A DNA stretch of 64,000 bases from a virus. The stretch covers positions 10,424 to 74,423 of the IMG/VR virus record IMGVR_UViG_3300036823_000301. One strand, 5' to 3'. How positions within the stretch are numbered: the stretch's first letter is position 1; each line of letters begins with the position of its first letter. The position numbers and the translations under genes were made by a program. The notes below the pieces were generated by a model, which ran no database searches, was not told where the DNA came from, and worked only from the letters and a program-made list of their open reading frames with translations. This document shows, one piece after another, positions 43,921 to 50,010 of the stretch.

Positions 43921-46257
43921 TCAAGGTGATGCGAATGCGATTGACGGACCCCAGTCACTGGTTCCAGCGCTGGTGATGACTTGAACTTGCGCGAGGTAAA
44001 AATCGCCAGATACGGCGCCAGACAGCGAAAGCTGCCAAGTTGTTGAGCTCGTCTGTGTAGGACTTGAAATGAATGTAGCATAACCGGGTGATAGAGAATC
44101 AAACGTCCAACGAAAGTTGAATGTTGGAGTTCCTGTCCCAACCCATGTCCAGGCTATCAGCGGCTTTCCAGCAGTTCCTCCAGCTAAATGGACATTTGTA
44201 GGAACTGGAATGATTGTGAAAACAGGTCTTGTTGTAAATGGGCTCGTCGTAAACGGTCCGTATGTCTGCGACGTCGGTCCCGTCCCCTGTGCATTTGTTG
44301 CCTGGACCTGGAACCATACTGGGATGCTGTCAAATGACGCCGACACAAGATAATTTGTTAACGCTTGAAAATTGACGACACCCCAGCCTGTGCACGCATC
44401 CCACCCGTTGTTAACAACAGGATAGCCTGGAGATCCATTGCTACTATTATTCGTGCCACTACCGGATTGCGTACCGATATCGCGAATGGTTAATAAAAAC
44501 GGAATTGGGTCATTAACCTGAGCCCATACAGAGTTTGCATCACCAGGAGATTTTTCATAAAATAAGCCAGAACTGTTCTGTTGAAAAAGCAAATCAATGG
44601 GCGGGCTCATGTATAATAAATACACGACGTTTGCTGTTGTCGCATCCACGGTCCCATGGTTTGCGATTTGCAAACCATTATTTGCTGACGTAACGAGGCT
44701 AAAAACATTACCGTGGGTGTCAGTAATATTGACACCGGCCCCATTAGCCGCTTGCGCGTTCCACAGACCTTGTTGAATATGATATATTGTTGGATTAAGA
44801 AACCCCAACGGACGCCCCAACGCTTGCATGACTCTGGCAAGGCAACCGGCATACTGCGGTGCTGTCACACTAGTTCCACCAATCACACCGAACGCGCCGT
44901 TAACTTCGGTATTGTAACCGCTGAATGAGCTAGCATTCCCTGCTACATCAGGCATTCCACGCCCTATAAAACCAAAATCCGACTGTGCTGGCATATTTGG
45001 GACGTAGATCGTCTGATAAGTAGGTCGTGGAAAAATTCTGCTTATGCCACCCCCTGTCGCACCGATACTATTTGGGTTATCGTTCCAAACCCATTCAGTG
45101 AATGTCGGATATTGACCGGTGCCGATGCTAGCGACTGTGGTCCCACCTGTATTTAAGATCCAAGGGCTGCCACAAGGATAAGCTATCCAATTTTCCGTTG
45201 TTGATGGAAAGTAATTTGAAGATCCTTCATCACCAACAGCAGAGATGATTGTCACCCCAATAAGTGCAGCGTCCTCATGATAAGTCTCACATGCATTAAA
45301 AAAGGGAATGTATGTATTCTGTTCAAAATCTTCCGTAAAAACACTTGATATTGAAAATAGAGTTACAACAGGATCACCTGGATTGGGATGCAACATTCGT
45401 GCAAGCAACTCTGGATAATTTTCAGCTGAGCGATCAGCAAAATAAATCGCTAAAGTTTTCACACCTCCGGAAAATCCCAAGATCATAACATTATCGACGT
45501 TACCTTCTCCAGCATCTCCACTATTTGGATCAGATCCATTTGTGCTCCCATCGACAGACACGAACACTGTGCTCGTCGTCGTGCCAGCAGAAGCTAAACC
45601 CCAATTGTTCAAAGTATTTTGAATTTCTGTAGCATTCTGAAGCCAACCATAAAGACCAATAACTTGCTGATTAGCGCTTGTTGTCAATCCGCTGTAAATC
45701 CCAGATATCTGTTGTGGTGTAAATGAAACACCATTAGGTAGATCGGCTGGAGGAACTGTAGCGCGAACAGCTTTATATTCTGTATGCACACCGAGAATCG
45801 CATGCAGCATCGGATGAATATGGTCCGGAACGTGAAATCCCGTATGCGTCCGAAATTTGTAGCGGCCTAACCTTGGGTGTTCCTTTTCATAATGATGAAT
45901 TTCAGTATGAAATGCCTTTTCCAACTGATCGACCGAAGCGTTAACGACAACCATACGGCGGGAGCCGTGTGATTCACACCAACTGAAGCCAGATGCTTTA
46001 CAGAAACTCTCTATCGCTCTGATCTCATCAGGATGAGCACCATACTTCTGTTGAAAGTCCGGATCTTGCCGTGTCCGAGGTGGGCAGCCCAAGAACTCAT
46101 AAAACTCCGGAATCGGATCGTGCCCCGGCCGACGGCGAAGGTGAAACTTCACACGGATAGATTCATCTTTAGGGGCACGGCCGACATAAGTCGTCCTCGC
46201 AGGATCAGGGGGGAACCTATGCGCTGGGGCTAAAGCTTTGTATCCGATAGGGGGCAT
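43921..46257 (-). CDS. Sedolisin (S53) serine peptidase with propeptide, inserted Trp-module and C-terminal FN3 elements
   Basis: Propeptide, E...D (GEGNVD), AVGDEGS, GGTT, RGMPDVAGNA, GGTS, GWDACTGWG. Start at TAATG overlap (the ORF track starts at 46278). Confidence 0.9.
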   Translation of the reverse strand: MPPIGYKALAPAHRFPPDPARTTYVGRAPKDESIRVKFHLRRRPGHDPIPEFYEFLGCPPRTRQDPDFQQKYGAHPDEIRAIESFCKASGFSWCESHGSRRMVVVNASVDQLEKAFHTEIHHYEKEHPRLGRYKFRTHTGFHVPDHIHPMLHAILGVHTEYKAVRATVPPADLPNGVSFTPQQISGIYSGLTTSANQQVIGLYGWLQNATEIQNTLNNWGLASAGTTTSTVFVSVDGSTNGSDPNSGDAGEGNVDNVMILGFSGGVKTLAIYFADRSAENYPELLARMLHPNPGDPVVTLFSISSVFTEDFEQNTYIPFFNACETYHEDAALIGVTIISAVGDEGSSNYFPSTTENWIAYPCGSPWILNTGGTTVASIGTGQYPTFTEWVWNDNPNSIGATGGGISRIFPRPTYQTIYVPNMPAQSDFGFIGRGMPDVAGNASSFSGYNTEVNGAFGVIGGTSVTAPQYAGCLARVMQALGRPLGFLNPTIYHIQQGLWNAQAANGAGVNITDTHGNVFSLVTSANNGLQIANHGTVDATTANVVYLLYMSPPIDLLFQQNSSGLFYEKSPGDANSVWAQVNDPIPFLLTIRDIGTQSGSGTNNSSNGSPGYPVVNNGWDACTGWGVVNFQALTNYLVSASFDSIPVWFQVQATNAQGTGPTSQTYGPFTTSPFTTRPVFTIIPVPTNVHLAGGTAGKPLIAWTWVGTGTPTFNFRWTFDSLSPGYATFISSPTQTSSTTWQLSLSGAVSGDFYLAQVQVITSAGTSDWGPSIAFASP

Positions 46258-49485: not shown

Positions 49486-50010
49486 CTAACCTAGCAGATT
49501 TGGCTGGTCCATAACGCCAAACTGTGGATCGTCCAGGACGAAGACTGGTATTGGATTCCAGCTGACTTTGATCGCGTAAGGTGTCTCTGCAATCGCCGCT
49601 ACAAAGGGTCTGGATGGTGTAGTGACAGATGGTGGAGCGACACTGGTCGCAGGCAGGAACGTCGTCACCGCGACCGGTCCAAAGGTCGTATTGACCTGCA
49701 TACTGGCCTGGAACGTCCTGGTGTCGGTATTAACCTGACTATTGTAGCCCACAATGCTGGATACATTAGGTGAATTGAGGATACGTGCGCGGATGACCGG
49801 ATCTCGGGTGCTTGCGGTGCGGTTACCGAGCACTTGGGTGTTCCACGGCGTACCATCCGCCGTATTTTGATACCATTCGCCGAGAAACAGGCCGAGCCGG
49901 GTGCTGATGATCTGGCCGACGGCGTCTGCATTATTGACCAGGAACGCCCGCTGTGATCGACCAAACACCATATCCCCTGTCGCGTCTTGCGCCCTTACCC
50001 TCACGATCAT
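49486..50010 (-). CDS. Baseplate wedge/sheath initiator (gp25/gp46-like) with C-terminal extension
   Basis: MIVRVRAQD..GD..FG, AVGQ...TRL.LFLGEW......GTPW, T.FG; ~55 extra aa. Confidence 0.88.
   Translation of the reverse strand: MIVRVRAQDATGDMVFGRSQRAFLVNNADAVGQIISTRLGLFLGEWYQNTADGTPWNTQVLGNRTASTRDPVIRARILNSPNVSSIVGYNSQVNTDTRTFQASMQVNTTFGPVAVTTFLPATSVAPPSVTTPSRPFVAAIAETPYAIKVSWNPIPVFVLDDPQFGVMDQPNLLG

Follow-up and report, generated by a model that had tools for sequence, protein, structure and literature searches.

Neighbouring tail genes of an uncultured soil phage are cut inside a small FN3 domain. The window, a stretch of 64,000 nucleotides (positions 10,424 to 74,423 of the IMG/VR record IMGVR_UViG_3300036823_000301), contains a block of four genes coding for a gp25-like wedge protein (W) and for proteins of 457, 615 and 778 residues, Table 1. 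The cut is kept in relatives, and rebuilding of the split domain therefore probably joins the separate proteins and hangs sugar-cutting enzymes on the baseplate; the pairing is predicted from the sequences. We give the whole proposed assembly, i.e. separate, coupled chains with FN3 domains rebuilt from pieces on different chains, a probability of about 0.6.

In this assembly, the four genes would be translated in a coupled fashion from one operon into separate polypeptides, of which at least the first three would be held together non-covalently by the rebuilt domains. The C-terminal extension of the gp25-like sheath initiator would most likely provide the A-B strands missing from the FN3 remnant (five strands) at the head of the 457-aa SPRY adaptor, and the C-terminal A-B hairpin of the adaptor would complete the FN3 domain at the head of the 615-aa protein. 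The latter domain would hold a nested SPRY-like domain and be followed by a GH16 glycanase. The predicted roles of the lectin-like SPRY domains and of GH16 are the binding and the cutting of a host surface glycan, and the baseplate could carry up to six enzyme-bearing arms. By conjecture, the sedolisin may attach by a third split, with strands A-E on the 615-aa protein and F-G after the protease. We infer the physical pairing, its order and the presence in the virion; the location of the four proteins there is assumed from gene position.

Table 1. Features of the four-gene block, with coordinates in the window.
Feature	Coordinates	Strand	Evidence
W core, gp25-like wedge / sheath initiator, residues 1 to ~120 of 174	49651..50010	-	phrog_120, PDB profile search
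W residues 132-153, putative FN3 A-B donor hairpin	49552..49617	-	position, conservation, co-occurrence, homology-guided AF2 model
W residues 154-174, conserved 21-residue tail ending NLLG	49489..49551	-	identity among three phages
Junction 1, TAG CCA ATG, stop and start in same frame	49480..49488	-	window sequence
457-aa residues 1-66, FN3 strands C-G, acceptor half 1	49285..49482	-	Pfam fn3, FN3 HMM
457-aa residues 67-235, Ala/Gly/Val-rich repeat linker	48778..49284	-	25% identity among orthologues
457-aa residues 236-430, SPRY-like domain 1	48193..48777	-	weak Pfam SPRY; 54% identity among orthologues
457-aa residues 431-457, C-terminal FN3 A-B donor hairpin	48112..48192	-	Pfam fn3, hhalign
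Junction 2, TAA CACA ATG, +1 frame	48102..48111	-	window sequence
615-aa residues 1-13, FN3 strand C	48066..48104	-	FN3 HMM, conserved start
615-aa residues 14-205, SPRY-like domain 2, nested between strands C and C'	47490..48065	-	paralogy to SPRY 1, flanking HMM columns
615-aa residues 206-258, FN3 strands C'-G	47331..47489	-	FN3 HMM, Pfam fn3
615-aa residues 261-332, weak FN3-like A-E segment without F-G	47109..47324	-	FN3 HMM columns 3-57
615-aa residues about 345-615, GH16 glycoside hydrolase	46260..47072	-	Pfam GH16, PDB matches
778-aa residues 1-644, sedolisin (S53) pro-enzyme	44326..46257	-	Pfam, PDB profile match; start = ATG of TAATG overlap
778-aa residues 645-672, orphan FN3 F-G-like hairpin	44242..44325	-	FN3 HMM columns 72-91
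778-aa residues 683-778, divergent Ig/FN3-like C-terminal domain	43924..44211	-	strand-like pattern by eye

Using the Pfam fn3 profile (PF00041), only three matches are obtained in the six frames of the 74-kb genome: the N-terminus of the 457-aa protein (30.4 bits, profile 31-75), an internal part of the 615-aa protein (profile about 40-76) and the C-terminus of the 457-aa protein (profile 2-23, genome-wide E-value 0.0024). No full-length match to this profile is present in any single ORF of the four-gene block. We also built a 95-column FN3 HMM from complete FN3 domains of distant relatives. In the 457-aa protein, residues 7-65 align to columns 34-92 (47.7 bits) and residues 434-456 to columns 3-25, i.e. 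the gene begins at column ~28-34 and ends at ~25. In the 615-aa protein, residues 5-13 align to columns 33-41 and residues 206-252 to columns 43-88 (33.6 bits). The pieces on adjacent ORFs jointly cover the profile in register at junction 2 (columns 3-25, 33-41 and 43-88). Comparing joined halves with single ORFs was one of the checks named in an earlier note on this DNA, which was made from the letters alone; the virtual join gives one match in ungapped register over columns 3-89 with 59.4 bits, and the single ORFs give partial matches only. At junction 1, only the acceptor is clear, the donor being weak.

Short A-B pieces inside long ORFs score within the six-frame noise of the 95-column HMM, and their significance rests on the genome-wide Pfam scan and on profile-profile comparison (hhalign). 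In the latter, the C-terminal tails of five 457-aa orthologues match columns 3-26 with a P-value of 7e-6, while their N-termini match columns 28-82 with an E-value of 8e-21. The split that the earlier note had seen between the 457-aa and the 615-aa protein is therefore borne out by complementary columns in Pfam, in the FN3 HMM and in the profile-profile comparison.

The HMM columns on the two sides of the second SPRY-like domain are contiguous, 41 then 43. The domain is flanked by strand C and strands C'-G and is therefore nested between C and C'. It is a paralogue of the first SPRY-like domain, with 34% identity. Against Pfam SPRY, the 457-aa protein alone scores 17.4 bits and the L005 homologue of the 615-aa protein 20.7 bits; taken over both copies in the read-through product, the score is 26.9 bits (cut-off 26.3). 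The PDB matches to SPRY proteins are only weak, and both domains are best called SPRY-like. The C-terminal part of the 615-aa protein is assigned to GH16 from a Pfam score of 52.8 bits and PDB matches to beta-1,3-glucanases and carrageenase. The E-I-D-I-F-E stretch visible in the translation fits the catalytic E-x-D-x-x-E of GH16, and the activity is a predicted one.

The split points are conserved in relatives, as a further check proposed in the earlier note confirmed. Five 457-aa orthologues, with an identity of 38-46%, keep the same start and the same end column, and three relatives of the 615-aa protein (L004, L005/P0008, P0006) keep its start, MSG..YQ.Q.R. In all orthologues the two proteins start at FN3 column 28-34, i.e. 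with an incomplete sandwich at the N-terminus. Three independent viral contigs have the same boundaries, and so do two other proteins from the databases. The half-domains are 45-67% identical (64% among orthologues for acceptor half 1), compared with 25-28% for the linkers, and synonymous sites are saturated. Judged by these identities, the half-domains are as conserved as folded domains and under selection. Three relatives (L004, L005 and P0004) also carry two extra A-B-like inserts without known partners.

Split domains are found in other arrangements as well. In L026, the baseplate protein encoded after Baseplate_J lacks an acceptor half and has A-B as its last strands; the gene after it begins with strand C. 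In L024 and L025 the split falls between C and C'; one gene ends with A-B-C, a linker and a GH16 or GH26 domain, and the next starts with C'-G. All three allow pairing only between two proteins, which strengthens the reading of the halves as connectors.

According to its sequence matches and its position, W is a gp25-like sheath initiator. Residues 4-117 belong to the baseplate wedge family phrog_120, residues 11-109 match sheath initiators in a PDB profile search (e.g. Pam3 gp21, 7yfz_X, E-value 8e-13), solved sheath initiators align only to this part, and the neighbouring genes code for a hub (E217_GP41) and a spike protein. The split proposed between W and the 457-aa protein stands for its acceptor half, which is solid; the A-B segment of W has no significance against the FN3 profile (hhalign P-value 0.22) and adds only 4.6 bits. 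In a MAFFT alignment, W residues 132-153 are in register with strands A-B of complete FN3 domains, and with this alignment as input AF2 forms strands A and B from V137-T143 and A146-W151 (pLDDT about 90). The segment is 45% identical among three phages. It is missing in the distant relative L021, where W has 123 residues (174 here, 168-170 in L004 and L005) and both the tail and the accessory block are absent, the J-like and DUF2612 genes coming directly after; tail and block therefore occur together. Among the three phages, the last 21 residues of W are 52% identical, compared with 28% for the linker before them, and they are modelled with low confidence (pLDDT 61-72).

The read-through product of junction 1 folds in AF2 as a complete FN3 domain (pLDDT 83.5) whose strands A and B come from the W segment, and the model resembles solved FN3 domains according to Foldseek; it is an artificial single chain, modelled using an alignment with complete FN3 domains, and shows compatibility only. 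When the alignment is left out, the model is poor, with a pLDDT of 47.6.

The junctions and the genes around them are as the earlier note had described them (TAG-CCA-ATG in frame, TAA-CACA-ATG in +1, and TAATG). One polyprotein containing intact FN3 domains would arise if ribosomes read through the stop of junction 1 and shifted by +1 at junction 2; the stop and start of junction 1 share a frame both in the window and in L004 (TAA CGT ATG), and read-through at junction 2 would leave BC loops of plausible length. However, junction 1 in L005 is a TAATG overlap in another frame, and junction 2 needs +1 here but a shift in the opposite direction in L004 and L005, where it is an ATGA overlap. The stop codons (TAG/TAA, TAA/TGA) and the spacing differ too, no slippery motif is seen, the ATG and the MSG start are conserved, no tRNA gene, suppressors included, is present in the window, and the spacers at the split in L024 and L025 are 23-24 nt long and contain AGGA. 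Such recoding is very improbable, and the earlier statement that no single recoding mechanism accounts for all junctions agrees with the differences in frame, spacing and stop among the window, L004 and L005.

Being assembled from a metagenome, the record could contain false stops created by error within one long gene. This is refuted for practical purposes by the boundaries shared with the three viral contigs and two database proteins, and by the reads: the source run has a depth of 12 over the region with no variants, and mapping over junction 2, again a check named beforehand, found the junction spanned by a contig of an independent soil run with no differences, so the stop is not an error. 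Two other runs, X3 and X4, cover short parts only, away from the junctions. Since the junction DNA varies in stop, spacing and frame between relatives, neither recoding nor sequencing error explains the split.

The boundary between the 615-aa and 778-aa genes is a TAATG overlap, and the last gene therefore starts at 46257 (778 aa) and not at the TTG at 46278. Its product is a predicted sedolisin: Pro-kuma_activ is matched with 59 bits, and residues 26-496 and 601-640 align to pro-kumamolisin (1t1e_A, E-value 8e-50) with an extra insert of ~100 aa, so that both the pro- and the catalytic domain are alignable to kumamolisin. A hint of the proposed third split is the orphan F-G hairpin directly after the kumamolisin-like domain. 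It scores 14.7 bits compared with noise of at most 9.6, and apart from the two clear FN3 domains (FN3_1 and FN3_2) no other 30-mer of the window is as FN3-like. The rest of this claim fares less well, as the gene boundary comes after a normal GH16 C-terminus common to relatives, and the A-E segment, followed by a Gly-rich linker, reaches 10.9 bits alone. The C-terminal domain of the 778-aa protein gives a full-length but non-significant alignment to the FN3 HMM. A viral-contig scan with the 778-aa protein and a word-based search with the sedolisin C-terminus found no relatives for comparison of this split. We regard the E|F split towards the sedolisin as suggestive and the link to the enzyme as conjecture. 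The claim that all three gene boundaries fall inside an FN3 domain is thus kept for junction 2, half kept for junction 1 and weak for the third.

Megablast of the four-gene block against GenBank phages gave no match, and scanning viral contigs with the 457-aa, the 615-aa and the 778-aa protein singly gave none either. Metagenomes and genomes scanned with the alignment of the 457-aa family yielded no host, and the only matches were distant arrays of complete FN3 domains. In an exhaustive search, no fused 457-aa/615-aa gene was present among the best 150 of 4,791 matches. A promoter and terminator scan gave nothing above shuffles, and literature searches found nothing direct on split FN3 domains in phages. 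A "second daisy chain" proposed for the DUF2612 gene and the genes of the 1182-aa and 828-aa proteins was not confirmed; by eye, ~190 nt and a small ORF lie between them.

As the 457-aa protein carries both a donor and an acceptor, self-closure and polymerisation fit it equally well. Its C-terminal hairpin might complete its own N-terminal remnant to a circularly permuted FN3 domain, the wedge tail, if a donor, then pairing with the 615-aa protein. When joined, its own halves obtain the top HMM score (64.8 bits, columns 3-93), the linker of ~165 residues and the SPRY domain could bridge the distance, and FimA of the type 1 pilus is known in both forms, a monomer that complements itself and a polymer (PMC6615685). 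We nevertheless consider self-closure unlikely, since it would leave the adaptor with no visible attachment to the virion, the halves in L026, L024 and L025 are on different proteins with no same-chain partner, and the tight coupling and conserved gene order suit a chain better. Copies of the 457-aa protein could also join head to tail, forming a fibre of variable length from the wedge tail; with an acceptor but no A-B donor, the 615-aa protein would be its cap. The acceptor and the donor are of the same domain type and compatible in sequence, and the logic is that of donor-strand complementation in pili (PMC6615685, PMC4789730). The 1:1 translational coupling, seen in the ATGA and TAATG overlaps of relatives, points to the proteins being made in equal amounts, with no major subunit in excess, and makes this polymer quite unlikely.

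The halves might instead be scars of gene fission, left by cassettes or stop/start signals inserted into a once continuous multi-FN3 fibre gene. They would then persist as flexible linkers or by constraint at the DNA level, and the proteins would associate by other surfaces or not at all. Nested single-chain forms (SPRY in the FN3 domain of the 615-aa protein, a GH-like domain in that of L005/P0008) make insertion into FN3 loops a plausible origin, and L004 has an 82-aa ORF with odd leftover pieces. We find fission scars improbable, given that the halves are conserved like folded domains while the true linkers have diverged and synonymous sites are saturated, that the same cut is found in five orthologues and recurs in unrelated lineages, and that a five-strand FN3 remnant alone would expose its core. 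For ordered, non-covalent connectors between wedge, SPRY adaptor and SPRY/GH16 protein, the reading first put forward in the earlier note and preferred here, the halves are complementary, conserved, selected and without a common recoding signal; the wedge donor is statistically weak, and the sedolisin end of the chain is conjectural.

A wider idea, tentative in all its parts and doubtful when they are taken jointly, is that split FN3 domains form a plug-and-socket assembly code in soil phages. The order wedge, SPRY adaptor, SPRY/GH16, sedolisin would be set by the different cut points (B|C, C|C', E|F) together with sequences specific to each half, with branching perhaps via the extra A-B inserts of the relatives, and the conserved DNA of the half-domains would also serve as recombination joints for swapping cargo (GH16, GH26, GH114, S53) between phages. 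If the halves pair, phages would have a simple general route for attaching swappable enzymes and lectin-like modules to a baseplate that is itself conserved, by one small domain common to two chains whose position can be read from gene boundaries. This would explain many "truncated" FN3 matches at tail-gene ends in metagenomic phages, give a rule for predicting which tail proteins touch, and provide natural two-piece FN3 connectors for protein engineering.

The only solved example known to us of such a joint is the tripod of Lactococcus phage Tuc2009. There, the C-terminal beta-hairpin of BppU completes the sheet of BppA domain 2 (PMC4742702), and the earlier view that no natural system of this kind had been described has to be withdrawn. 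In Tuc2009, a baseplate protein has a C-terminal hairpin extension of ~25 residues that is missing in close relatives without the accessory protein (PMC4742702); likewise, the W extension is missing in L021, the relative without the accessory block, and the accessory proteins have an incomplete sandwich. The sandwich completed by the Tuc2009 hairpin is Ig/titin-like and belongs to an accessory protein that binds carbohydrate, and the acceptors here carry lectin-like SPRY domains and predicted glycanases. Tuc2009 is, however, a siphovirus of a Gram-positive host with one joint and a crystal structure, whereas we describe a contractile-tail baseplate by sequence evidence only. Moreover, the joints proposed here are serial, with donor and acceptor on one protein, and the cut is at a defined FN3 loop, with other cuts (C|C', perhaps E|F) in relatives.

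Donor-strand complementation, as of FimA in chaperone-usher pili (PMC6615685) and Mfa4 in type V pili (PMC4789730), is similar in that an incomplete Ig-like fold is completed by strands of the next subunit, giving ordered, very stable non-covalent chains, and in that a subunit may either complement itself or polymerise, an alternative also posed by the 457-aa protein. Pili use one donor strand together with a periplasmic chaperone and usher, or proteolysis, whereas we propose that a C-terminus donates a hairpin of two strands (or three to five strands) in the cytoplasm. Among the neighbouring genes, Pfam and PHROG scans found no chaperone or usher, but baseplate, glycosyltransferase and fibre genes only; the resemblance is one of working principle, not of membership. 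An FN3 domain cut in a loop can reassemble from two fragments, as used in engineered complementation and split-domain tag/catcher pairs; these are laboratory constructs, while the split here is natural and conserved at gene boundaries. Branched tailspike/adaptor systems and the cohesin-dockerin pairs of cellulosomes also place several enzymes on one scaffold by modular connectors with swappable cargo. Their connectors are complete folded docking domains, unlike the one domain common to two chains proposed here, and "cellulosome-like" is an analogy only. Beyond the solved example of Tuc2009, the window would add joints in series, with a domain nested in one of them, that several soil phages conserve.

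The boundary between the genes for the 457-aa and the 615-aa protein (junction 2) cuts an FN3 domain. In six frames, the whole genome gives only three matches to the Pfam fn3 profile of 84 positions: 31-75 at the N-terminal head of the 457-aa protein, 40-76 inside the 615-aa protein and 2-23 in the final 22 residues of the 457-aa protein (E 0.0024). We also made an independent HMM of 95 columns, for which distant metagenomic relatives supplied 16 complete FN3 domains. On this HMM, residues 7-65 of the 457-aa protein cover columns 34-92 and its residues 434-456 columns 3-25; in the 615-aa protein, residues 5-13 cover columns 33-41 and residues 206-252 columns 43-88. 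These positions place the cut in the B-C loop, and the nested SPRY-like domain of the 615-aa protein, 190 residues long, sits precisely between C and C'. The C-terminal piece of the 457-aa protein and the two 615-aa pieces, concatenated by script, give a single match of 59.4 bits over columns 3-89. Profile-profile comparison gives a clearer signal: the C-terminal tails of five 457-aa orthologues align to columns 3-26 (P 7e-6) and their N-termini to columns 28-82 (E 8e-21). The split at this boundary, claimed in the earlier note, is real.

The source record is 74.4 kb long and complete according to CheckV, and the DNA of the window is present in soil metagenome runs. The genes belong to a contractile-tail baseplate operon on the minus strand, which runs from the tape measure through the hub (E217_GP41-like) and spike to genes 1-4. 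Residues 4-117 of W, the gene 1 product, match phrog_120, and its profile matches solved sheath initiators (Pam3 gp21, E 8e-13, residues 11-109); residues 118-174 are an extension beyond this core. About 15 kb of accessory genes (window 32967-50010) separate the sheath-initiator gene from the J-like and DUF2612 wedge genes, a block with the 457-aa, 615-aa, sedolisin, GT9-like and Gp80-like genes and those of 1476-aa and 1033-aa repeat proteins. The DUF2612 wedge gene and the gene of the 1182-aa hydrolase are not adjacent, because a 60-codon ORF (window 31661-31843, minus strand) fills the space between them and overlaps the hydrolase start (ATGA); this bears on a putative second daisy chain through these proteins, proposed separately.

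Coordinates of the four genes and of related FN3 pieces in other phage contigs
Feature	Position	Strand	Description
Gene 1 (W)	49486-50010	-	174 aa, gp25-like sheath initiator/wedge protein
Gene 2	48109-49482	-	457 aa: FN3 piece, low-complexity linker, SPRY-like domain, short tail
Gene 3	46257-48104	-	615 aa: SPRY-like domain, FN3 pieces, GH16 domain
Gene 4	start 46257	-	778 aa, complete pro-sedolisin
Extra A-B-like inserts	L004:5276-5380 and L004:5567-5659		FN3 columns 2-36 (strands A-B), up to 25 bits in L004
FN3 cut between C and C'	L024:4986-5200 and L025:4965-5170		soil phage contigs

The split points are conserved. The five 457-aa orthologues (window, L004/P0053, L005/P0153, P0004 and P0087) are 38-46% identical, and all of them start in the B-C loop and end just past strand B. 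The phage contigs L004 and L005 are syntenic, and their gene order is identical between the tape measure and the GT9-like gene. The 615-aa protein shares its head, M-S-G...Y-Q-x-Q-x-R, with three relatives (L004, L005/P0008 and P0006), which vary in cargo: none in L004, a GH-like domain that lies nested within FN3, between strands C' and E, in L005, and GH114 in P0006. Among window, L004 and L005 about 60% of the identical residues have different codons, i.e. silent sites are saturated, and amino-acid identity is 45-67% in the half-domains, 51-54% in the SPRY-like domains and 25-28% in the linkers. The half-domain fragments are not decaying.

In three of the five 457-aa orthologues (L004, L005 and P0004), SPRY loops hold two extra inserts, each about 32 residues long, which are absent from the window's gene and from P0087. 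No partner halves for them were found, and they may be branching points or leftovers. L004 also has an 82-aa ORF (L004:6796-7044), flanked by a 260-aa gene and the GT9-like gene, in which strands C-F (FN3 columns 32-76) run straight into A-B (columns 3-26) and the G strand is missing; it may be an unusual adaptor or what a deletion left behind. The Ala/Gly/Val-rich linker of the 457-aa protein (window 48778-49284, minus strand) resembles the C-terminal regions, rich in repeats, of the DUF2612 protein (31857-32300) and of the L026 donor protein (L026:3300-3750). The linker may form a fibrous stalk, perhaps a trimeric one, and this would affect the stoichiometry of the FN3 joints.

Scanning viral contigs with the 457-aa family alignment gave three further cases. 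In L026, from a high-GC phage (L026:2649-4030), the gene directly after Baseplate_J encodes a 391-aa protein with an A-B segment at its end; the next gene has its ATG directly after the TGA and reads M-S-G-T-T-Y-Q... from column 33, followed by complete FN3s. Since the donor protein lacks an acceptor half, pairing is possible only between two proteins, and this is the clearest example of a baseplate protein as putative donor to a fibre. In L024 and L025 the upstream protein has FN3 strands A-B-C and a Pro/Thr linker, then GH16 in L024 or GH26 in L025, before the stop; after a 23-24-nt spacer with AGGA, a protein starts with C'-G and an FN3 array. In the 615-aa protein this same point, C/C', holds the nested SPRY-like domain. 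The cargo varies and the halves are conserved, the pattern expected of a connector.

Sequencing error as the source of the split is ruled out: in an independent soil run, a 354-bp contig crosses junction 2 with zero differences, and read mapping in the probable source run gives depth 12 over the region with no variants. Recoding is likewise ruled out. Junction 1, between W and the 457-aa protein, reads TAG-CCA-ATG in the window and TAA-CGT-ATG in L004, and in L005 the two genes overlap at TAATG in a different frame; at junction 2 the window has TAA-CACA-ATG, and the genes of both L004 and L005 overlap at ATGA. Across the three there is no common frame relation, stop codon or slippery motif, and the window has no tRNA gene. 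As the earlier note had argued, no single recoding mechanism fits; the genes are laid out as separate genes coupled in translation.

At junction 1 the acceptor half, the N-terminus of the 457-aa protein, is solid, but the A-B donor proposed in W is not significant by sequence (hhalign P 0.22) and adds only 4.6 bits to the acceptor. Its support is indirect. The W extension is kept in three phages, including a 21-residue tail ending in N-L-L-G. In the distant relative L021, W has 123 aa without the extension and is followed directly by J-like and DUF2612 genes, i.e. the extension and the accessory block occur together. In a MAFFT alignment with complete FN3s, the W segment falls in register with their strands A-B, and the 21-residue tail becomes an insert in the B-C loop. 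The natural in-frame read-through (TAG as Q), modelled by AF2 with the MAFFT alignment, gives a complete FN3 (mean pLDDT 83.5, pTM 0.71), with strands A and B formed by W V137-T143 and A146-W151 at pLDDT about 90 and the tail insert at 61-72; solved FN3 domains match this model in Foldseek. Without an alignment the read-through model is poor. As a single artificial chain guided by homologues, the model shows compatibility, not binding.

Junction 3, between the 615-aa protein and the sedolisin, is not inside an FN3 in the plain sense, because the 615-aa protein terminates in a normal GH16 C-terminus, common to many relatives, and the sedolisin has its own pro-domain. What stands of the proposed boundary is a weak FN3-like A-E segment ahead of GH16 (10.9 bits), followed by a Gly-rich linker, and an F-G-like hairpin five residues past the end of the kumamolisin-like domain. 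The hairpin tops the FN3-like 30-mers outside the two clear FN3s in the six-frame window (14.7 vs at most 9.6 bits); joined, the two pieces reach 18 bits, below the sum of the parts. Neither a viral contig scan with the 778-aa protein nor a word-based search with its C-terminus found relatives. An A-E/F-G split linking the two proteins is a conjecture, made somewhat more plausible by the C/C' splits in L024 and L025.

The sedolisin itself matches pro-kumamolisin (1t1e_A, E 8e-50), and its true start is the ATG within the TAATG overlap. The database call P0154 (677 aa) begins 101 codons downstream (window 45955-46257, minus strand), a start that would remove part of the pro-domain, for which the Pfam and kumamolisin alignments begin at residue ~26. 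Compared with kumamolisin, the catalytic domain contains an insert of about 100 residues (residues 497-600; window 44458-44769, minus strand), by eye like the Trp-rich repeat modules of the relatives P0010 and P0011 and of the 828-aa and 1182-aa proteins.

The best reading of these sequences is that the split FN3 domains are completed between chains, which would link the sheath-initiator tail, the SPRY adaptor (457-aa) and the SPRY/GH16 protein (615-aa). The 457-aa protein carries both a donor and an acceptor, so self-closure, in which its own donor completes its own acceptor, or head-to-tail polymerisation is possible; the same ambiguity between self-closed and polymeric forms is documented for FimA (PMC6615685). 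Of the split boundaries described in the earlier note, junction 2 is confirmed fully, junction 1 by half and junction 3 weakly. The note's reading of the half-domains as ordered connectors is in part supported; the wedge donor is statistically weak and the sedolisin link a conjecture. From gene position only, we infer a virion location for these proteins.

The earlier note knew of no natural precedent, but phage Tuc2009 provides one, where the C-terminal hairpin of BppU completes domain 2 of BppA (PMC4742702). Donor-strand complementation in pili shares the principle with the split FN3 joints; the machinery differs. Beside these cases, the window contributes a version that is serial, anchored on the baseplate and equipped with a nested domain, and its relatives show several cut points.
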